From positions 1 through 33,196 of the forward strand of contig JAYUGC010000079.1 in assembly GCA_043767805.1 (NCBI GenBank): a stretch of 33,196 nucleotides of DNA, in the 5' to 3' direction. Position numbers and translations under genes: made by a program. This document shows, piece by piece, positions 1 to 13,711 of the stretch. The first letter of the stretch is position 1; each line of letters opens with the position of its first letter. The notes beneath the pieces are model-generated. The model made no database searches and had not been told where the DNA came from. It worked only from the letters and a program-made list of their open reading frames with translations. The stretch comes from Pseudomonadota bacterium. GTDB taxonomy: Bacteria; Bdellovibrionota; FAC87; UBA2466.

Positions 1-1
1 C

Positions 2-289
2 GCGGCCGAGCGCCGGCGCAAACAGTCCGGTCAGTGGGCTTTCTTACGGCTTTTGAACCGGATGCTCTTTCAAGGCGCCGAGCCCGAAGAGCGGCGGAAA
101 GTGTTCGAGCGGTTTTACTCACTCTCGCAAGGCTGCATCGAGCGCTTTTATGCGGGGCGGCTGACGACGTTCGACAAAGCGCGGATCCTCGTCGGTAAAC
201 CGCCCATCCCCGTGAGCCGCGCGCTCGAGTGCCTTCGAGAGGCGCCTCGCCGCGAAGGCTTTGGCGAGACAGGGGCGGTCTTTGGATAA
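2..289 (+). CDS. crtY: Lycopene beta-cyclase CrtY, C-terminal fragment (5' truncated by window edge)
   Basis: Frame is open from position 2: ...WAFLRLLNRMLF..AEPEERRKVFERFYSL....IERFYAGRLT..DKARILVGKPPIPV, the characteristic C-terminus of bacterial CrtY. Lies upstream of crtE/crtI/crtB-like genes. Confidence 0.88.
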   Translation, partial: AAERRRKQSGQWAFLRLLNRMLFQGAEPEERRKVFERFYSLSQGCIERFYAGRLTTFDKARILVGKPPIPVSRALECLREAPRREGFGETGAVFG

Positions 290-1298
290 GCAGGGGTTGC
301 CTACCTGCGGAGATTTGACGCCGCTTCTCGGCTTTCACGAGGATGCCGTATCCGATCTCGTTCAAGGCGCGCTACTGAGCCCGCTCAGTGAGTTTCTTAC
401 CCGGCCCGGCAAACAATTCCGCGGGCAGCTCGTGCGCTTGGCGTTCCGGCTTTCCGATTCGGCTTTGACGGTTCCCGAAAGCGAAGCCGAGCGCTGGTTC
501 GGTCTGGGTGCCGAGGTGCTCGAGCACATTCACGCGGGCTCGCTCGTTGTCGACGATATCCAGGACGGAAGCCTCCAGCGGCGTGGGGGACCCACCTTGC
601 ACCGCGAGCACGGCGTGCCGCTCGCTTTGAACGCCGGGAACTGGCTTTACTTTTGGCCGCTCGAGCGCGTCAAGACGTGGGGACTTCCGCCCGAGCGAGA
701 AGTGCGGGTCTATCAGGTTTGCCACGAGGCTTTGCTGCGGGCGCACTTCGGGCAGGCCCTCGATGTCGGCGTACCCATCGATGGGCTCGATCGTGGCCGC
801 ATTCCGGAAGTTTCCCTCGCGTCTTTAGAGCTGAAAACCGGCGCGCTCATGGCGCTCGCCACTCAGCTGGGGGGCGTGCTGGGCAACGCGAGCCCCCCGC
901 GGCTCGAAGTTTTAGGTGAGTTCGGTAAACGGTTTGGCATAGCGCTCCAGATGCTGGACGATCTCGGTAATTTCACCGGCAAGGCGGGGCAGCCGGCCAA
1001 GGCCGACTCGAAACGCTGGGAAGACTTGCGCCTCCGCCGGCCCTCCTGGGTTTGGGCCTCGGTCGCGCGCCATGGAACGCAGAGCGAGTTCGCCGAGTTC
1101 GTTTCCGCGGTGCGGGCGCTTCCCGAAGAAGCAAGGCTCTTGCCTTGGACCAAAGGCCCCTTCGTCGAAAAGGCCCGCGAGGAAGCCGACGCCTATCTGG
1201 AGAGCGCGCTTTCGGGGCTTGAGTCGGCGGTCGGCGCCGGGGTTTTTGTCGACGAGATTAAGCAACTGGGAAGGGCGCTCGCCAGGGCGTACCGCTAA
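261..1298 (+). CDS. crtE: Polyprenyl diphosphate (probably GGPP) synthase, CrtE-like
   Basis: GKQFRG, first Asp-rich motif HAGSLVVDDIQDGSLQRRGGPTLH, GQALD, KTGAL, second motif QMLDDLGN; crt context. Start may instead be the TTG at 282, which overlaps the crtY stop. Confidence 0.8.
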   Translation: MARQGRSLDKQGLPTCGDLTPLLGFHEDAVSDLVQGALLSPLSEFLTRPGKQFRGQLVRLAFRLSDSALTVPESEAERWFGLGAEVLEHIHAGSLVVDDIQDGSLQRRGGPTLHREHGVPLALNAGNWLYFWPLERVKTWGLPPEREVRVYQVCHEALLRAHFGQALDVGVPIDGLDRGRIPEVSLASLELKTGALMALATQLGGVLGNASPPRLEVLGEFGKRFGIALQMLDDLGNFTGKAGQPAKADSKRWEDLRLRRPSWVWASVARHGTQSEFAEFVSAVRALPEEARLLPWTKGPFVEKAREEADAYLESALSGLESAVGAGVFVDEIKQLGRALARAYR

Positions 1299-1306
1299 AG
1301 GACATT

Positions 1307-3808
1307 ATGAAGCCAAAAGTAGCCGTCATCGGAAGTGGATTTGGAGGACTGGCGAGCGCCATTCGTCTGAGAGCGCAGGGGTTTCCGGTCACGATCTTCG
1401 AAAAACGCGAATTACCTGGGGGGAGAGCTTACGTCTATCGTCAGGACGGCTTCACTTTCGATGCGGGGCCCACGGTGCTCACCGCTCCCGATTGCCTAAG
1501 CGAGCTTTTCGAGCTCTCCGGCCGTGCGATGAAGGATTATCTGGAGATGCTAAAGCTCTCCCCCATGTACCGGCTCCATTGGGAAGATGGGCTCGTTTTC
1601 GATTATTCGGACAGTGTCCAAGACACCATCGCCCAGATCGAGAAGATCAATCCCGAAGACGCCAAGAACTATCCGGCGTTTCTCGAGTACACGCGTCAAG
1701 TCTTCGTCGAGGGCTACGAGAAGCTCGCGCACGTTCCCTTCCTGAAGATTTCGAGCATGGTGAAAGTCGCGCCCCAGCTCTTGAAGCTCCAGGCGTACCG
1801 CACCGTCTATTCTATGGTGAGCAAGTATCTGAAGGACCCGCACTTGCGTCAGGCCTTCAGCTTTCACAGCCTGCTCGTCGGAGGCAATCCGTTTTCCGCC
1901 TCCGCGATTTACACGCTCATCCATTACCTCGAGAAGAAATGGGGCGTTTACTTCGTGAAGGGTGGCATGAACGCGGCCGTGGACGCTCTCGCCAGGCTTT
2001 TCACCGAGATGGGCGGGGAAATTCGTTACTCGGCTGAGGTCGACCGGATCGTCACCAAGGACGGCAAGGTTACCGGCCTCGTGTCTCAGGGCAGAGAAGA
2101 GGCTTTCGGCATCGTCGTCAGTAATGGCGACGTCGTGCACACCTACCAGAAGCTTCTGCGCGAGGAACCGGCGGTCGAGGGCACGAGAAAACATCTGCTC
2201 AACGCCCGCCATAGCCCGTCGCTCTTCGTGCTCTACTTCGGCACACGCCGTAAGTACCCGGGCCTTGCCCATCACAATATTTTGTTCGGGGCTCGCTACA
2301 AGGAGCTTTTGAACGATATTTTTCACAAGGGCGTTCTCGCCGACGATTTCTCGATTTACCTTCACGTGCCCACGGTCACCGATCCGAGTCTCGCACCGGA
2401 GGGCTGTGAAAATTTCTATGCGCTGTCTCCCGTGCCTCATCTCGGAAAGGCGGCGATCGACTGGAAGGTGGAAGGTCCGAAATACGCGGATAAAATTTTA
2501 GGTTATCTGGAGAAGCATTATCTTCCCGAAGTGCGGCGTGAGATCGTCACCCAGAAGTTCTTCACGCCGGATGATTTCAAGTACGAGCTCAACGCGCACC
2601 TGGGCTCGGCCTTTTCCCTGGAGCCCGTCCTTTGGCAGAGCGCCTACTTCCGCGTGCACAACCGGGACAGCCACATCAAGGGTCTCTATTTCGCGGGAGC
2701 CGGAACGCACCCTGGGGCGGGAATCCCTGGCGTCATCGGCAGCGCGAAAGCCACGGCTGGTCTGGTTGTCGACGATTACCACCTGGGTAACGTCGAGACT
2801 TTGGATCGCGTGGTGCAAGAGCAACGCGATGCTGAGGCGGCGATTCCGCTGGTGGTGAGGGGAGCCCAGCCCGCTCGCCCGGACGTGTCGCCGTCGGTGG
2901 CGGCCGCGCTCACGCAGTGCCGGAATATGATCAAAGTGGGCTCGAAGAGTTTCTCCATGGCCTCGCATTTGTTTGGAGAAGAGACGCGGGATGCAGCCCA
3001 CTTTCTATATGGGTGGTGCCGCTACGCCGACGACCAGGTGGACTCCGTGCGCGATCCGGTCGATCAGCTCATCCGGGTGGAGCAGCTCCGCTCGAAAACG
3101 GCGGACGCTTTTCGCGGCACTCCGGCGCCGGAGCCGGTTTTCGTGGCGCTCGCTCACATCGCCCAGCAGTATCGCATTCCGTCCTACTACGCCGAGGAGC
3201 TCCTGGAAGGCATGGCCATGGACGTCCGGCGGACGAGTTATGAAACCCCCCGCGACTTGAGTCTATATTGTTATCGGGTCGCCGGAACCGTGGGTCTCAT
3301 GATGAGTCACGTGATGGGAGTTTCTGACGAGAAAGCTCTGGAATATGCCGCCGCCATGGGAAGCGCCATGCAGCTTACCAATATCGCGCGCGACGTTCTG
3401 GAAGATTCCGCCATGGGCCGGGTTTATCTCCCCGTCGCCTGGCTGAGGGAAGAAGGTTTGAGCGAAGCAGACGTGGGCCGGCCCGAAAATCGGGCGGCGG
3501 TCGCGCGGGTGGTAAGCCGGCTCCTCGACTTGGCCGATCGCTACTACGCCATCGGTAACGACGGCATGAAGTTTCTTCCCTGGAGAGCCGCGGTGGCGGT
3601 GGGTACGGCGAGCGCGGTCTATAGCGACATCGGGCGAGTCGTGCGCGAGAAGGGCGCTCTTGCTTGGGATCACCGCGCGGTGGTGTCCAAAGGGCGGAAA
3701 GTAGTGATGGTGCTCAAAGGCCTGATGTTGACGCTCGCCACGGTGCCGTATCGGATAGCGAAACCCTTCCGTCCGGTCGCCTTGGACACGGTGTGGAGGC
3801 ACGCATGA
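1307..3808 (+). CDS. crtI-crtB: Fused phytoene desaturase (CrtI, about 1307-2780) and phytoene synthase (CrtB, about 2900-3808)
   Basis: N-part: VIGSGFGGL FAD-binding motif, FDAGPTV, FSFHSLLVGGNPF, GAGTHPGAGIPGV. C-part: GSKSF, WCRYADDQVD, YCYRVAGTVG, QLTNIARDVLED..GRVYLP. One continuous 833-aa frame; AAGGA RBS upstream. Confidence 0.93.
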   Translation: MKPKVAVIGSGFGGLASAIRLRAQGFPVTIFEKRELPGGRAYVYRQDGFTFDAGPTVLTAPDCLSELFELSGRAMKDYLEMLKLSPMYRLHWEDGLVFDYSDSVQDTIAQIEKINPEDAKNYPAFLEYTRQVFVEGYEKLAHVPFLKISSMVKVAPQLLKLQAYRTVYSMVSKYLKDPHLRQAFSFHSLLVGGNPFSASAIYTLIHYLEKKWGVYFVKGGMNAAVDALARLFTEMGGEIRYSAEVDRIVTKDGKVTGLVSQGREEAFGIVVSNGDVVHTYQKLLREEPAVEGTRKHLLNARHSPSLFVLYFGTRRKYPGLAHHNILFGARYKELLNDIFHKGVLADDFSIYLHVPTVTDPSLAPEGCENFYALSPVPHLGKAAIDWKVEGPKYADKILGYLEKHYLPEVRREIVTQKFFTPDDFKYELNAHLGSAFSLEPVLWQSAYFRVHNRDSHIKGLYFAGAGTHPGAGIPGVIGSAKATAGLVVDDYHLGNVETLDRVVQEQRDAEAAIPLVVRGAQPARPDVSPSVAAALTQCRNMIKVGSKSFSMASHLFGEETRDAAHFLYGWCRYADDQVDSVRDPVDQLIRVEQLRSKTADAFRGTPAPEPVFVALAHIAQQYRIPSYYAEELLEGMAMDVRRTSYETPRDLSLYCYRVAGTVGLMMSHVMGVSDEKALEYAAAMGSAMQLTNIARDVLEDSAMGRVYLPVAWLREEGLSEADVGRPENRAAVARVVSRLLDLADRYYAIGNDGMKFLPWRAAVAVGTASAVYSDIGRVVREKGALAWDHRAVVSKGRKVVMVLKGLMLTLATVPYRIAKPFRPVALDTVWRHA

Positions 3809-4392
3809 GCCAGTCTCGAACGTTTCTGCAGGACACCTGGTTCTACATTCGCCGCATGGACCAGTTTCAGCGAGGAGACTGGTGGGTATACTTTCTTTGG
3901 GTGGGGCAGATCTTTTCGCTATTCGCCGTCCTCTTGGCCTTCCTCCTGGTTGGCCATCGCGCCGGAGCGGTTTATCCCGCTTACGTCTGGAACATTCCCG
4001 TGGGAACGTTCATCTTCGCCATGGCGATTGCCATCGATACCATTGGCCATCGCACGGCGTACCGCCAGGCTCTCAAGAGCGGGGAAGAGCTCGTTCATCA
4101 CATTACGATTGCGGCGGGCATTTCGAGCTGCGTGCTACTTTGTCTGGCGTACACGTACCGGCAGTTCTTCATGATTCCGGCTCTGGTCCTGACGGGGCTC
4201 TCGATTTTCTACAGCGCCATCGACGAGGGGATGCACTGGTTCCGTTTCTTTCAGGGAAACTCCGATCGAGTGGAGATGTGGAGCCACTTTTTCATCTTCG
4301 TGGGCCACGTCATCATGATGAGCGCGTGGGTGCTCTGGTTCATGGAAGGGTATCCGGGAGTCGCGGCGACGCTGGTGGCGCTGGGGTACTAA
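3805..4392 (+). CDS. Uncharacterised polytopic membrane protein (195 aa) with duplicated D-x3-H-x12-E-x3-H motif; last gene of crt operon
   Basis: ATG at 3805 overlaps the crtIB stop (ATGA); GGAGG at 3795-3799; about five hydrophobic segments; motifs AIDTIGH...EELVHH and AIDEGMH...EMWSH. Confidence 0.8.
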   Translation: MSQSRTFLQDTWFYIRRMDQFQRGDWWVYFLWVGQIFSLFAVLLAFLLVGHRAGAVYPAYVWNIPVGTFIFAMAIAIDTIGHRTAYRQALKSGEELVHHITIAAGISSCVLLCLAYTYRQFFMIPALVLTGLSIFYSAIDEGMHWFRFFQGNSDRVEMWSHFFIFVGHVIMMSAWVLWFMEGYPGVAATLVALGY

Positions 4393-7300
4393 CTATTTCG
4401 CGACGTTCACACGGATGGTCGTGTTGGTGCCGTTGCTTTCCGACCAGGTGTTATAGAGCTTGATGCCGAACTGCAAGAGGAAGGGATTGCTGGCCGCGCG
4501 GTTCGTACTCTTATTCAAGCCGGAGAAGCCGTTGCCGTCGATAAACGTCCAAACGCCGGCGCCGGACTCGTTGCTCAGAACCGCGGCTCTCGTGTTTTGG
4601 GCCGCGCCGTTGGACTCGGTCCAGCTCGCATAGAGATAGTTGCTCAAAACGCCGAGCATGGGTTTCGAGGCGATGCGGGTAGGATCCTTGTTGAGGCCGA
4701 CGTCGGCCACGTTCCCGTCGACTTTCACCCAGTTAGTGGCGGCGCAGCTCGCGCCGTCGAAGCGGGCGACTCGGACCTGGGCGATACCCCCGGTGCTGTC
4801 CTCGGTCCAGGTCACGTAAACTTTGTTGTTATAGATGACCGCGCGAGGGTTTCTCGCGTGGTGAGTGAGATCGTGGTTCAAGCCGGTGCCGGTGGTGTAC
4901 TGCCAACCCGATGCGGTCTCATCCTCGTTACAGGCAACCTGAATCGTTTCTTTGTTGGTATTACTCGTCTCTTGCCAGGCCAGATAGATACGTCCGGCCA
5001 GAGTCACCATGGACGGCGCCAGCGCATTCTTGGAAGGGTTCACGTTAAGACCGTTCTCGGCGCTACCGGTATCGAAGTTGGACCAGATAACTCCGTCCCA
5101 CTTCTTCACCCGGATTTCCGTGTTGACCGAGGTGTTGAGCTCTAAAAAGGCGACGAAGAGGTTCGAGCCGCCCGCGGCCGGAGAAGGAGCGGTCGCTTGG
5201 TTCAAAACGTTGCGATTGAGACTGCCGCCGTCCATCGAGCTCCAAAGCGGAATGCTTCCGTCGCCGTTAAAGCGCTGAGCGCGGATCTGGCTGACTGCCG
5301 TGCCATTGAGCTCTTCCCATGTCATCCAAAGATCGGCGCCGAACACGACGGGCCTCGCCAGGTTCGCCCCGTGAGTCGGATCGTTATTGAGGCCGTCGGC
5401 AAGCCCTCCGTCCAGAGACGCCCAAACGGGCGCCGTATCGTTGCCGTTGAAACGGAAGGCCCGGATGTTATCGGCGGTACCGTTATTTTCCTGGGAGGTG
5501 ACGATGACAGAACCGTTGAACTCCACGAGCGACGGATTCTTCGCGTTCTTGGTGAGATCGTGGCCGATGCCGTCGGCGCCGTTACCGTCGACGAAAGTGC
5601 CGAAGGCCGCTTGGCGCCAGGTGAACCCGTTGGTGCCCGTCACGGTCTGCGCGTCGATGTTGGTCAAAACGATGTTGGTGGAGGTAGTCGGAGTGCCCGC
5701 CGGAGCGAGACAAGACAAAGTCGTGGCGTTGGAGACCAGCACGCTCGCGCAAGGTAAATTATTGATGGTGACGACGGCGCCGGCTCTAAAGCCCGTTCCC
5801 GTCACGGTAACGCGATCGCTGCCCATGAAGAACCCTTGGGTCGAGCTCGTGAACGTCGGCGGCGGGTTGTAAGTGTAGGCCGATGACAACGTTCCGGGGT
5901 AGGTGATGCCAGTATTTAAATCGCGATTGGTAACAACCACGTCCACAACTCCGCCACCGCCCGCGGCCGGCGTGCGGCAGGTCAACTGGGTAGTCGACAA
6001 GGCAATCAAGTTCGTGCAGGACTGGCCGCCAATGGAGACGAGCGAGCCCAGATTATAATTGGACCCCGTGACCGTGACCACCGTCGAGCCGGAGACGGGG
6101 CCTTCCGCCGGAGAAATGCTGGTGACGACGGGCGTAAAGGAAGGCGCGGTGTAGGTAAAGCCGCCGACCTGAGTGGCGGACGCCGTCAAGAGCGTGAGCA
6201 AATCGTGATTGGTGATGATGACGTCGGCGGCCGCGGCCGTCGCGCTGGACGGTGTGGTGCAGGATAGTGAAACCGAGGAGGTCACGACCACGTCCGTGCA
6301 ATTACGGCCGCCAACGGAGACCGTCGTGAAAAGGTCGAAGCCCGTGCCCGTGATGGTAACCGTCGTTCCGCCGGTTTGCGTACCGCTCGCGGGGGCGGTC
6401 AAAGTCAAAGTCGGGGTCACGAGATTGGTGAGATAGGTATATCCGCCCACCTGGGTCGCCGTCAGCGTCGCGAGCGTAATCGGATCGTGGTTGGTGACGA
6501 CCACGTTCACGGCTCCGGTGGAGACTTGAGAAGGGGTCGTGCAGGTCAGGGAGGTCGCGGAATTTACGACCACGTCTTTGCAATTGCGCGCGCCGATGGA
6601 AACCGTCGTGTAGAGATCGAAGTTCGTGCCCGTAAGGGTGACCGTAGTGCCGCCGCTTACCGTGCCGCTCACGGGAGACGTCAGTGTGACGCTAGGAGCC
6701 ACGACGTTGGCGGCGTAGGTAAAGCCGCCGACTTGGGTCGCCGACGCGGTGGCAAGCGTACTGGGCTCGTGGTTCGTAACTACGACGTTCACCGCGCCCG
6801 CCGCCGACTGAGACGGTGTCGTGCAACTAAGTGACGTCGACGAAGCCACGACCACATCCCTGCAGGTGCGGCCGCCCATGGCGACCGTCGTTTGTAAGTC
6901 AAAACCCGTACCCGTCAGAGTTACGGTAAGTCCGCCGACGACAGAGCCGCTTAGCGGAGTCGTCGCCGTGATCGTCGGCGTGACCAAGGCTGTCGTATAG
7001 TTGTAACCCGCGCCCAGCGTGCCGGAGCTGGTCAAAAGCGAAGTGAGGTCGCGGTTCGTCGCGATGATGGCGACGGGACCCGTCGCCGATTGCGAAGGCA
7101 CCGTACAGGTAAGTGAGGTCGACGAGATGGCAAGTACGTCCATGCAGGTGCGTCCGCCGAAGCTCACGGTCGAGGTCAAATTGAAATTCGTTCCGGTGAG
7201 AGTAACGATGGTGCCGCCATTCGTGGTGCCCGACGTGGGAGACACCGCGCTCACCGTCGGCGTGGTGAGAGTGAGGGGCCCCGTGCCGCCCGCCGCGGTA

Positions 7301-7668
7301 TAAGTAAAAGCGCCCACCAAATTCGCGCGCAGGCTCGTGCCAGTCGTGAAATCCCGATTCGTCACGGCCACGTCGACCGCGCCGAGAGAGCTCGCCGCGG
7401 GCGTTAGACAAGTCATCGTCGTAGGCGTGAGCGCGATGGAGACCAAGCAAGGAGCGTCACCGACGGTGACGGTCGCGGTCAGCGCAAACGAAGTGCCGGT
7501 CAAAGTGAGCAGCGTGCTCCCCGAGATGGTTCCGCTAGAGGGAGAAACCGTGGTCAGACCAGGTTGCACCACGGCGTCAGCCGAAATCGGCCGGGAACAG
7601 CTGGGCAAAGCCACGGCGGTGACCAGAAGAACAACCCAGGTAAGCTGACGACGTACTGCTAAGGGCAT
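4393..7668 (-). CDS. Large surface lipoprotein: 7 IPT/TIG domains plus C-terminal 7-repeat (probable beta-propeller) domain
   Basis: Signal peptide ending LPSC (lipobox-like); seven repeats of the P-x-I/V-x2-V-S-P-x2-G-x3-GGT-x-V-T-L-T-G-x-N/G-F type, each with a Cys pair; C-terminal repeats W..DG...GLN.D....A..P......LY..W.E.....IRV. Confidence 0.85.
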   Translation of the reverse strand: MPLAVRRQLTWVVLLVTAVALPSCSRPISADAVVQPGLTTVSPSSGTISGSTLLTLTGTSFALTATVTVGDAPCLVSIALTPTTMTCLTPAASSLGAVDVAVTNRDFTTGTSLRANLVGAFTYTAAGGTGPLTLTTPTVSAVSPTSGTTNGGTIVTLTGTNFNLTSTVSFGGRTCMDVLAISSTSLTCTVPSQSATGPVAIIATNRDLTSLLTSSGTLGAGYNYTTALVTPTITATTPLSGSVVGGLTVTLTGTGFDLQTTVAMGGRTCRDVVVASSTSLSCTTPSQSAAGAVNVVVTNHEPSTLATASATQVGGFTYAANVVAPSVTLTSPVSGTVSGGTTVTLTGTNFDLYTTVSIGARNCKDVVVNSATSLTCTTPSQVSTGAVNVVVTNHDPITLATLTATQVGGYTYLTNLVTPTLTLTAPASGTQTGGTTVTITGTGFDLFTTVSVGGRNCTDVVVTSSVSLSCTTPSSATAAAADVIITNHDLLTLLTASATQVGGFTYTAPSFTPVVTSISPAEGPVSGSTVVTVTGSNYNLGSLVSIGGQSCTNLIALSTTQLTCRTPAAGGGGVVDVVVTNRDLNTGITYPGTLSSAYTYNPPPTFTSSTQGFFMGSDRVTVTGTGFRAGAVVTINNLPCASVLVSNATTLSCLAPAGTPTTSTNIVLTNIDAQTVTGTNGFTWRQAAFGTFVDGNGADGIGHDLTKNAKNPSLVEFNGSVIVTSQENNGTADNIRAFRFNGNDTAPVWASLDGGLADGLNNDPTHGANLARPVVFGADLWMTWEELNGTAVSQIRAQRFNGDGSIPLWSSMDGGSLNRNVLNQATAPSPAAGGSNLFVAFLELNTSVNTEIRVKKWDGVIWSNFDTGSAENGLNVNPSKNALAPSMVTLAGRIYLAWQETSNTNKETIQVACNEDETASGWQYTTGTGLNHDLTHHARNPRAVIYNNKVYVTWTEDSTGGIAQVRVARFDGASCAATNWVKVDGNVADVGLNKDPTRIASKPMLGVLSNYLYASWTESNGAAQNTRAAVLSNESGAGVWTFIDGNGFSGLNKSTNRAASNPFLLQFGIKLYNTWSESNGTNTTIRVNVAK
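5620..7563 (-). repeat. Seven tandem IPT/TIG domain repeats (about 90-100 aa each)
   Basis: Repeat starts: PGLTTVSP, PTVSAVSP, PTITATTP, PSVTLTSP, PTLTLTAP, PVVTSISP, PTFTSST. Repeats 3-5 share TATQVGG/SATQVGG F/Y TY endings. Confidence 0.85.
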
Positions 7669-11569: not shown

Positions 11570-13711
11570 TCAGCCCGCGCCGAAAGTTCTTCGGAGCAGG
11601 TAGTACTCGTTGTAGGGCCGATCGTCGGAGACCCGGATCCGGGGGTTCTTGATTAGGGACGCCGGAGCGATTTCGCTGTCTAGAAACCGCTTCACGAAAG
11701 TGAAAGGATCCTTGGTGCCAGCGTCCGGCCACTCCACCAGATCGCGCTGAGAAATCTCGCTCACCTTCGCGAGAATATCCGCCTCGGTCATCTTTGGGAG
11801 CGGAGTCAGGGACGCAAAGAAATGATGTCCGCCTCTGGCGACCGGAGGGCTGAAGACCCGCACGTACGGGAACGCCTCGAACACCGATTTCGCGACGGCC
11901 TCGACCGTTTTGCGCTCGGTATCGGGGAGCCACTGTTGCAGCATGCCTCCCGGTTTCAGCTTCGCTTTGGCGAGCTCGTAGAATTCCCGCGAGTAGAGAA
12001 GGCTGGAGCCGGCCGCCGCCGTCGGAGGCGGCGGATCGATGGTGATCAAATCGTACGTGTCCCTGGTGCGGCGCAAATAGCGACGGCCATCGTCGACGAT
12101 GATGCGAGCGCCGGGCCTTGAGACGATCTCGGGCGCCTCGGGGAAGAAGTAAGAAAAGGCCAGTGGCACGCTCGGCACTAGCTCCACCGCGGTCACGTCG
12201 ATATTCCATTGCCTGAGCGATCGGAACGTCGTTCCCATGCCGAAGCAAATGACCAGCGCCGACTTCGGCTCGGTGAGATGGGCCATCGGGAGGTGCGCCA
12301 TCACTTTCGTAATGGTGGTGAGCTTCGTCATGCCCATGCCGTTCACGAGAAGCATCTTATCGAAGCCGTTGCCGTACGCGATGACCGAGGCGGTGTGATC
12401 GCGCAGGATCCGCGCTTCCGTATCGGTCGCGCGCCATTGATCTTCGTAAGTGCGAGCCAGCAGAGCGACGAAAATCATCGTGGCTACCACCGGAACAAAG
12501 CGCAAGCTGGGGCGGTTCCAGACAAGCCAGGCGCCGAGATAGGGTACCGCGAGCCAAACCAGAGAGCTTTGCGTGCCAAGCACCGGCAAGAAAAAATAAG
12601 ACGCCGCCAAAGGCCCGAGGATGCAGCCCAAGACGTTCATGCCGTAAGCAAAGCCAGCCGCGTGCGGGCGTCCCCCCGAAACGCGATCGATGAGCTGAGG
12701 CGTCAGATAGCCGAGGCCCAGGCAAAATGGGAAAATGCCGACGAGAACGCCGAGGACGCCGAGCCTAATCCGCGGGTCGGTCGGCAGTAAGGGAAAGATC
12801 GCGGCGAAGCAAAGGAAGTAGAGAAGGTGCTCCGTGCTGACGAGCCGGCCCTTGGCGAGATGGCGGCGATAAAGCAACGAGCCCACCCAGGTCGCGAGGA
12901 GGTACATGAGAAGCAGACCCGCGAATGAGTACACTTCCGTGCGCATGACCGGAGCGAACGCGCGGGTCCACACCACTTCCATTGCCATGGAGGTAAAGCC
13001 CGTCAGAAAAAGCGTCGCCAGGGCCTTGGGCGAACGCCTCGCTTGGAACGGAACTTCGGGCATCATCGGTTTGTGCGCCACCGGATGGCGTCGGGCCATG
13101 TCGAGCGCGAGCCAGGCGACGGTGACGTTCAAGACCGCCGCGACCGTAAGCGTTCCGCGAAACCCAAGCGTCTCCACAAGCACCACGGCGGTGAGAAACG
13201 TGCCGGCCAGCGCGCCGAGCACATTGGCCAAGTACAAAAAGCTAAAGCTGGATGATTCTTCCGGCAGGAGCCGTCTGAGGTAGGCGAGCAAAAAAGGAAA
13301 GGTCGCTCCCATGGCGATGCACCACGGAAGCAGCGCCACCGCCACGCCGAGTGAAGACCAAAACAAATAGGAGCCGGTGTTCGATCCACCGAGCGGAAGA
13401 AGCCGCGTCTCGCCCCACGCCATCAGGAGGGGCACGGCAAACGCGCCGAGGCCGAGCGTCGCCTCGGCAATCGCGTAAAACTGCGCGCCGTTTAAGCCCG
13501 TGCGCTCGCAAAGGGCGTCGACCCATTTACCCGCGCCCCAGGAGCCCAGAAAAAGTCCCGCCATGAAAACGGAGAGGATCACCGAGAGCACCGGAGTCAC
13601 GACGCCGAAAGCCGCGAAGCCGAGTCTCACCCAAACGATTTGGTAGAGCAGTCCGCAGAAGCCGGACAAAAAGAACATGAGAAAGAGACGGCGACGTAGG
13701 GGACCAGACAT
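11570..13711 (-). CDS. Fused membrane (MFS-like) / spermidine-synthase-like SAM-binding protein
   Basis: N-terminus FFLSGFCGLLYQIVWVR..., repeated LY.AN.LGA.AG and YGMNVLGCILG segments; C-terminus LVICFGMGTT, VELVPSV, DDGRRYL, YDLITID, LYSREFY..LKPGG. AAGGAG RBS. Confidence 0.87.
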   Translation of the reverse strand: MSGPLRRRLFLMFFLSGFCGLLYQIVWVRLGFAAFGVVTPVLSVILSVFMAGLFLGSWGAGKWVDALCERTGLNGAQFYAIAEATLGLGAFAVPLLMAWGETRLLPLGGSNTGSYLFWSSLGVAVALLPWCIAMGATFPFLLAYLRRLLPEESSSFSFLYLANVLGALAGTFLTAVVLVETLGFRGTLTVAAVLNVTVAWLALDMARRHPVAHKPMMPEVPFQARRSPKALATLFLTGFTSMAMEVVWTRAFAPVMRTEVYSFAGLLLMYLLATWVGSLLYRRHLAKGRLVSTEHLLYFLCFAAIFPLLPTDPRIRLGVLGVLVGIFPFCLGLGYLTPQLIDRVSGGRPHAAGFAYGMNVLGCILGPLAASYFFLPVLGTQSSLVWLAVPYLGAWLVWNRPSLRFVPVVATMIFVALLARTYEDQWRATDTEARILRDHTASVIAYGNGFDKMLLVNGMGMTKLTTITKVMAHLPMAHLTEPKSALVICFGMGTTFRSLRQWNIDVTAVELVPSVPLAFSYFFPEAPEIVSRPGARIIVDDGRRYLRRTRDTYDLITIDPPPPTAAAGSSLLYSREFYELAKAKLKPGGMLQQWLPDTERKTVEAVAKSVFEAFPYVRVFSPPVARGGHHFFASLTPLPKMTEADILAKVSEISQRDLVEWPDAGTKDPFTFVKRFLDSEIAPASLIKNPRIRVSDDRPYNEYYLLRRTFGAG

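Follow-up and report, generated by a model that had tools for sequence, protein, structure and literature searches.

Which step of pigment synthesis is carried out by the unnamed membrane protein whose gene closes a carotenoid operon in a bacterium of the phylum Bdellovibrionota (GTDB lineage FAC87, UBA2466)? The gene in question, here called gene X, lies at positions 3805..4392 on the forward strand of contig JAYUGC010000079.1 (assembly GCA_043767805.1), whose full 33,196 nucleotides (nt) form the window analysed here, and it encodes a protein of 195 amino acids (aa) with five predicted transmembrane (TM) helices at the end of an operon ordered crtY-crtE-crtIB-X. X is the founding member of an unnamed family tied to carotenoid biosynthesis. 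Judging from its sequence and its genomic company, we see about an even chance that it is a membrane enzyme of a new family, probably metal-dependent, that would oxygenate cyclic carotenoids in place of the beta-carotene 3,3'-hydroxylase CrtZ.

Gene X, the cyclase CrtY and the hydroxylase CrtZ

The distribution of X was followed in 401 mutually related genomes of the phylum. Strong matches occur in 59 of these; the weak profile matches in G010, G119 and G305 (E 1.8e-7 to 8e-4), two of which contain stop codons, are not counted. CrtI is present in 58 of the 59 genomes, as a contig-edge fragment in G203, and none was found in the remaining one, G266, whose sequence contains masked bases; CrtI also passes the cut-off in about 48 genomes that lack X. 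The lycopene beta-cyclase CrtY accompanies X in 57 genomes, and of the 318 genomes in which CrtY has no match only the fragmentary G203 and G266 carry X. The association of X with carotenoid genes is tight, and the link is to CrtY in particular. A role of X as the cyclase itself was rejected, as CrtY is encoded in the same operon and in those 57 genomes; the lycopene cyclase domain CrtYc/Yd (PF18916) gave no match in X.

The relation to CrtZ is the opposite one, since X and CrtZ are nearly mutually exclusive in the genomes searched. Using a profile built from three CrtZ-like proteins of 140-163 aa with His boxes visible in the alignment, we found a CrtZ-like hydroxylase in only one of the 59 genomes with X (G283), compared with 9 of the 12 genomes of a small comparison set that have a strong CrtY (E < 1e-50) and no X. 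Both states, X and CrtZ, are represented within each of the families f8, f10, f14 and f20. In clusters lacking X, the CrtZ-like gene stands after crtB in G122 (with a GT1-type transferase) and in G241 (after a CrtW-like gene), follows crtY in G087, and lies close to the crtY-E-I-B-hydroxylase-ABC cluster of G116. CrtZ (PF04116) resembles X as a small membrane protein of a similar size class, encoded after crtB or crtY in clusters that contain CrtY. It differs in its sequence: enzymes of the FA_hydroxylase/CrtZ type carry the His boxes HxxxxH and HxxHH, whereas X lacks these boxes, any PF04116 match (E ≤ 1) and any profile similarity, and has carboxylate-x3-His pairs. CrtW-like genes occur in 3 of the 59 genomes with X and in 4 of the 12 without it; they stand beside CrtZ everywhere but in G201 and G217, both of which have X.

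In the window, the ATG of X (3805-3807) overlaps the TGA (3806-3808) of the preceding crtI-crtB fusion, and a GGAGG ribosome-binding site (3795..3799, forward strand) lies 5 nt before it, within the end of crtB; the preliminary description had claimed translational coupling through this ATGA overlap and had placed X last in the operon, and both statements hold. X is a real gene with a confirmed open reading frame (ORF). The fusion (1307..3808, forward strand) encodes a phytoene desaturase joined to a phytoene synthase, 833 aa in all (Pfam Amino_oxidase and SQS_PSY; TIGR02734 with 660 bits over residues 5-493, SQS_PSY/CrtB over residues 535-812). Before it stand a crtE-like polyprenyl (geranylgeranyl diphosphate, GGPP) synthase gene (261..1298, forward strand; PF00348, E 2e-37), whose start codon is uncertain and whose product fell below the cut-off of the NCBIfam GGPP-synthase models, and the last 95 codons of crtY (1..289, forward strand; PF05834 positions 309-379 at C79:14-226; TIGR01790). 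Contig C137 of that genome ends with the first 290 codons of crtY (PF05834 positions 1-287 at C137:9921-10751; frame C137:9921-10790), so a contig break splits crtY and the operon runs from that contig into the window. On the other side, the stop codon of X (4390-4392) abuts that of a convergent gene on the reverse strand (4393..7668), whose TIG/IPT-domain product of 1091 aa (PF01833, E 2.5e-81) bounds the operon and lies outside the carotenoid system. The source genome is scored as 100% complete with 2.8% contamination, and the X of the nearest public locus is 89% identical. The crtI-crtB fusion, of about 810-850 aa, is shared by the window and most genomes of its family, where the open frames measure 809-848 aa; other families of the phylum have two separate genes.

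The linkage to crt genes, a check proposed in the preliminary description, extends to the homologues. In a set of 26 loci from species-representative genomes X is intact throughout and has crtB directly upstream on the same strand in 25; the exception, L024, has crtE-I-B in divergent orientation about 2 kb away and reads ABC ATPase, ABC-2 permease, X, GT2 glycosyltransferase. A crtY gene lies within 6 kb of X in 15 of the 26 loci by tblastn, or 16 by ORF clustering. One common form of the cluster (form A) is crtE-crtI-crtB-X followed by a convergent ABC-2 permease, an ABC ATPase and an FA_hydroxylase of 270-290 aa, and then crtY, with the permease in 13 and the hydroxylase in 10 of the 26 loci; another (form B) is crtY-crtE-crtI-crtB-X-GT2, in L023, L024 and G152. 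The window genome encodes a 268-aa FA_hydroxylase on another contig, 45% identical to that of form A, and a search with the L012 protein as query found no ABC-2 permease there. The 270-aa hydroxylase was present in 30 of 71 genomes tested, 26 with X and 4 with CrtZ only; none of the three genomes devoid of both X and CrtZ has it, a pattern that counts for the oxygenase reading. It is missing from 33 of the 59 genomes with X, including the closed genomes G072, G152 and G222. X depends on neither this hydroxylase nor, going by that single-query search, the ABC-2 transporter.

The exporter pair (DrrA/DrrB-like) and the His-box FA_hydroxylase of 270-290 aa form a module tied to crt clusters (L012:6594-9006, 12 further loci, and L070), which in G116 (L070) sits inside the crtY-E-I-B operon. 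The hydroxylase may act as a second hydroxylase of the CrtG kind, and the transporter might export carotenoids. Other genes near the crt clusters include, in G152, a MerR-family regulator with B12-binding domains (L090:1139-2083; CarH-like by domain content) divergent from crtY, which suggests light control of that operon. Downstream of X in L002, L003 and L006 and at the ends of L012-L013 lie genes for a PNP_UDP_1 phosphorylase, a small GT2 enzyme, a DUF2064 protein, a CMD-family protein and a radical-SAM/DUF3641 protein; NCBIfam associates this group of genes with the biosynthesis of arsenosugars (TIGR04283). A spermine/spermidine-synthase domain is part of large membrane proteins encoded in the window (11570-13711, reverse strand) and at L002:6540-8129, four genes after X in L002, L003 and L006.

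A membrane protein family with invariant carboxylate-His pairs

The preliminary description had drawn attention to a twofold D-x3-H-x12-E-x3-H motif in X. The letters are present as D78-x3-H82-x12-E95-x3-H99 and D140-x3-H144-x12-E157-x3-H161, and counting over 141 full-length relatives shifts the end of the first half by one residue. The residues kept there are D78 (140/141), H82 (141/141), E94 (141/141) and H98 (140/141), with E95 conserved in only 14 sequences and H99 in 126, so that the conserved repeat reads D-x3-H-x11-E-x3-H and D-x3-H-x12-E-x3-H, with unequal spacing. In the second half D140, H144, E157 and H161 are each kept in 141/141, as are E141, S137, R147 and S153. A further His that had been pointed out in the string FVGH (H168) is kept in 123 of the 141 relatives, and H51 in 30. 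The near-invariance of the eight motif residues extends to a subfamily only 23-26% identical. The His residues of X (51, 82, 98, 99, 144, 161 and 168) form no HxxxH, HxxxxH or HxxHH box, in agreement with the earlier statement that the boxes of CrtZ, CrtW and CrtG are absent. An internal duplication, which had also been proposed, found no support when residues 53-117 were aligned with residues 116-183 (hhalign probability 0.4%).

An AlphaFold model of X, computed with 45 sequences, has a predicted local distance difference test score (pLDDT) of 94.1 and a predicted template modelling score (pTM) of 0.88, with helices at residues 7-20, 23-52, 59-83, 87-114, 119-149, 155-180 and 186-192. In this model X is an integral inner-membrane protein with five TM helices, its N-terminus cytoplasmic and its C-terminus outside. 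Counts of Lys plus Arg over the family give 3.3, 2.0 and 2.6 for the N-terminus and the loops 84-93 and 142-156, which places these inside, and 0.3, 0.5 and 1.0 for the loops 53-58 and 115-120 and the C-terminus, which places these outside. Because these counts set the topology, the four carboxylate-His pairs are predicted to lie near the cytoplasmic ends of TM2-TM5: pairs 1 and 2 (codons at 4036..4098, forward strand) at the end of TM2 (D78 to H82) and the start of TM3 (E94 to H98), and pairs 3 and 4 (codons at 4222..4287, forward strand) at the end of TM4 (D140 and E141 to H144) and the start of TM5 (E157 to H161). The pairs would therefore face the side where CrtB, CrtI and CrtY work, and judged by this topology they may converge in space.

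The earlier suggestion that X may belong to an undescribed family is borne out by searches of Pfam and NCBIfam (no match; best Pfam E 0.59), of PDB sequences with a profile (best E 0.41) and of PDB folds. A word-indexed search returned 1246 relatives at E ≤ 1e-3, all of them unnamed or "hypothetical", with Bdellovibrio bacteriovorus and Peredibacter starrii among the named sources. An exhaustive search of 1.84 billion cluster representatives gave 77 matches, only 10 of them below 1e-30, and the family is compact at 50% clustering. A small divergent branch holds 17 proteins that are 23-26% identical; a cluster look-up returned no names for it and two metagenome scans no usable locus. X shares the features of its family: about 195 aa, five predicted TM helices, the pairs D-x3-H, E-x3-H, DE-x2-H and E-x3-H, and a gene that follows crtB. 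Alignments with hhalign against membrane proteins of the same phylum remained at probabilities of 0.1-0.4%, namely 0.1% for the beta-carotene dioxygenase Blh and 0.4% for the three CrtZ-like proteins, the 270-aa FA_hydroxylase also falling in this range. ESM Atlas yielded only unnamed clusters, and in the literature searched we found no description of the X protein and no mention of the gene bd1726 of B. bacteriovorus, which is discussed below.

The fold search proposed in the preliminary description returned no known fold above the level of helical bundles. A Foldseek search of the PDB returned no row at E ≤ 1e-3, the best being TSPO (4ryi, E 0.49, TM-score 0.36-0.44). In the wide VIA structural search the best rows were a PhoU-like protein (Z 9.8; root-mean-square deviation (rmsd) 3.8 over 163 residues), TMEM120A (Z 9.3) and TSPO (Z 8.6, rmsd 3.7 over 139 residues), all below the Z of roughly 13 that helical bundles need for trust in this search. 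TspO/CrtK (PF03073), encoded in the crt clusters of Rhodobacter, resembles X in its five TM helices, its similar size and its carotenoid-cluster neighbourhood; it gave no Pfam match in X (E ≤ 1), its structural scores are in the noise range for helical bundles, and to our knowledge TspO has no carboxylate-His pairs. The di-iron carboxylate bundles (AOX/PTOX and ferritin-like proteins) and PhoU-type metal bundles also recall X as helical bundles with paired carboxylate and His residues (or E/D-x3-D) one turn apart. The ligand pattern of AOX/PTOX and ferritin-like proteins is E...ExxH...E...ExxH, whereas X has D/E-x3-H four times rather than E...ExxH twice, is fully membrane-embedded and has no sequence relation to them.

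No fused form of X appeared in a search for longer relatives, which is weak evidence. Apparent fusions of X with SQS_PSY (P0166, P0177 and P0191) were rejected: their long wrong-frame stretches rich in arginine and proline point to frame shifts in gene calls that span neighbouring crtB and X genes on contigs high in guanine and cytosine (GC). Together with P0139 and P0141, these relatives indicate that the crtB-X pair occurs in high-GC organisms too.

Proposed hydroxylation and the competing roles

If X is an oxygenase, its place in the pathway may be pictured as follows. On the cytoplasmic side of the inner membrane, CrtE, CrtB, CrtI and CrtY would produce beta-carotene, and X, embedded beside them, would offer a pocket at the membrane interface lined by D78/H82, E94/H98, D140/H144 and E157/H161 together with E141, S137, R147 and S153. 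Going by the chemistry of these residues, the pocket might hold one or two redox-active metal ions and activate O2 with electrons from a cytoplasmic donor; the carotene would enter sideways from the bilayer and its ring would be modified, most likely by a ring hydroxyl, so that X would take the part played by CrtZ in other clusters. In some genomes the product would then be glycosylated by the GT2 enzyme, and in others it may be further hydroxylated by the 270-aa FA_hydroxylase and handled by the ABC-2 transporter. The data establish the gene and its family, their conservation and topology, the operon linkage, the co-occurrence with CrtY and the exclusion with CrtZ; from these we infer the metal site, the oxygenase chemistry, the substrate and the position of attack. 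Carotene hydroxylation is otherwise catalysed by a few unrelated enzyme types (CrtZ/BCH, CrtR and cytochromes P450). The bolder version, in which X founds a membrane oxygenase class unrelated to the P450s and to the His-box (FA_hydroxylase/desaturase) enzymes, with four pairs on four TM helices building, at the membrane's cytoplasmic face, a di-metal site that hydroxylates beta-carotene as an independent invention of carotene hydroxylase, is a tentative proposal to which we give distinctly less credence.

The preliminary description had suggested that X hydroxylates, oxidises or cleaves beta-carotene. Hydroxylation or oxidation gains support because X and CrtZ nearly exclude each other and because a glycosyltransferase gene adjoins X in five genomes. 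In these five of the 59 (G152, G222, G072, G121 and G207) the GT2 gene starts at most 27 bases after the end of X on the same strand, and the GT2 enzymes of L023 and L024 are HpnB/CruG-like by NCBIfam. None of CrtZ, CrtW, the 270-aa hydroxylase, CruF or CrtC was found in the five genomes, no gene of the FA_hydroxylase family in G072 and G207, and no P450 in G121 and in G207, which is 100% complete. If the GT2 enzyme glycosylates a carotenoid, X would be the only visible gene able to create its acceptor hydroxyl; this reasoning draws on where the GT2 gene stands in the operon and on the partial resemblance of its product to CruG.

Several observations weigh against a CrtZ-like oxygenase. G283 carries both X and CrtZ, and three CrtY genomes carry neither. 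Kinship among the genomes inflates the independence of the counts of co-occurrence and exclusion, which are not phylogenetically corrected, and the CrtZ comparison omits 14 genomes whose CrtY-like matches are weak (E 1e-14 to 1e-38). The GT2 enzyme beside X scores higher for the hopanoid-associated HpnB than for the carotenoid enzyme CruG, which makes its substrate uncertain. Known di-iron carboxylate proteins carry E...ExxH and membrane di-iron enzymes carry His boxes, and the motif of X matches neither pattern; a hydratase needs no metal, yet would also give a hydroxyl.

Among the alternatives, the one that survives best, although we hold it to be unlikely, makes X a non-enzymatic membrane partner: an anchor or scaffold for CrtB, CrtI and CrtY, a protein that holds or inserts carotenoids, or a part linked to the ABC-2 transporter. 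The translational coupling to crtB, the adjacency to crtB in all but one of the 26 loci, the gene row of L024 and the ABC-2 genes beside X in 13 loci would suit such a partner, as would the lack of any recognised catalytic family in X. However, CrtB and CrtI dispense with X in the roughly 48 CrtI genomes that lack it, and the window genome has X although the query used found no ABC-2 permease in it. Moreover, a cluster of nine to ten invariant charged or His residues on one membrane face suggests an active or metal site more than a scaffold, and a partner role leaves the exclusion of CrtZ unexplained.

X might also be a tailoring enzyme of other chemistry, which we likewise consider unlikely: a metal-free acid-base hydratase of the psi-end (CruF/CrtC-like, providing a 1-hydroxy group for the glycosyltransferase), a ketolase, an epoxidase, a 2-hydroxylase or an isomerase. 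CruF (PF04240) is a membrane carotenoid 1',2'-hydratase that supplies the hydroxyl for the GT2 enzyme CruG, and CruG-type enzymes act after a hydratase. X resembles CruF as a membrane protein encoded beside a GT2 gene (X is followed by a CruG/HpnB-like GT2 gene in L023, L024 and the five genomes), its conserved Asp, Glu and His would suit proton chemistry, and the X-GT2 genomes lack both CruF and CrtC. On the other hand, X has no PF04240 match (E ≤ 1) and tracks CrtY, as a psi-end hydratase need not do; it coexists with true CruF and CrtW-like genes in G217 and G201, and the exclusion is with CrtZ rather than with enzymes of the CruF or CrtW type. X as a stand-in for CruF or CrtW was rejected on its coexistence in G217 with a cluster that encodes both. 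This cluster (L088, G217:C1:322000-334500) brings together CrtW-like, CruF, acyltransferase, GT2, Blh and rhodopsin genes and resembles the set for a glycosylated, acylated keto-carotenoid antenna of xanthorhodopsin, such as salinixanthin.

It appears improbable that X is a redox helper, a membrane protein with haem or metal that would accept electrons from CrtI or oxidise quinol again, the service that PTOX renders to the desaturases of plants. The four invariant membrane His and the coupling to the crtI-crtB fusion would fit such a helper. Against it, a single leaflet holds all four His and each has its carboxylate at a distance of one turn, an arrangement that differs from the bis-His sites of di-haem proteins; X is also absent from the many CrtI genomes that lack CrtY.

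Rhodopsin genes, which bear on cleavage, occur in 36 of the 401 genomes and in only 14 of the 59 with X, leaving 45 X genomes without one; in 12 of these 14 a Blh gene stands beside the rhodopsin gene, and the other two genomes have contig-edge fragments. Blh/Brp (beta-carotene 15,15'-dioxygenase, PF15461), which acts on beta-carotene and has four conserved His, is a multi-pass membrane protein like X, and differs in that X has no Pfam match to it and no rhodopsin partnership. The part of the earlier suggestion that concerned cleavage to retinal was rejected, as rhodopsin-bearing X genomes keep their own Blh and most X genomes lack rhodopsin, a rejection that covers retinal only. Least probable of all, and by a wide measure doubtful, is X as a membrane carotenoid cleavage dioxygenase analogous to Blh/Brp that would use an iron site of four His to form retinal or a different apocarotenoid. 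The dependence of X on CrtY would fit this, and its four invariant His with neighbouring carboxylates recall the 4-His iron centres of carotenoid oxygenases, but these rhodopsin and Blh counts and the negligible hhalign probability against Blh speak against it. Frames of 660-690 aa in G025, G049, G080 and G117, next to rhodopsin genes, combine a CrtY-like N-terminal part with a Blh match and may be cyclase-dioxygenase fusions.

Pigments of the Bdellovibrionota

B. bacteriovorus HD100 is yellow and produces carotenoids; one report names bd1723-bd1725 and bd1730 as its carotenoid genes, which are missing in the white strain Tiberius (PMC3539863). Four unassigned genes separate those named, as many as form A has in this place (X, the ABC pair and the hydroxylase), and bd1726 is probably a member of the X family, judging by the gene numbering of that report and by gene order rather than by sequence comparison. 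For pigmented Silvanigrellales, only the lycopene pathway is annotated in the accessible portion of another study (PMC12321486). The xanthorhodopsin of an uncultured Bdellovibrionota bacterium binds hydroxylated xanthophylls, and the portion of that preprint at hand contains nothing on xanthophyll synthesis (bioRxiv 10.1101/2022.08.24.505090).

If the oxygenase reading of X is true, the protein would add a further type of carotene hydroxylase, built on a new membrane fold and bringing a new metal-site architecture to the membrane oxygenases, and it would offer a new part for engineered xanthophyll production. The X family, with at least 1246 proteins, would explain a conserved hypothetical gene in the pigment cluster of B. 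bacteriovorus, a model predator. On the bolder version, X would also supply the step still lacking on the way to the yellow xanthophylls of the Bdellovibrionota and perhaps to their rhodopsin antenna pigments.

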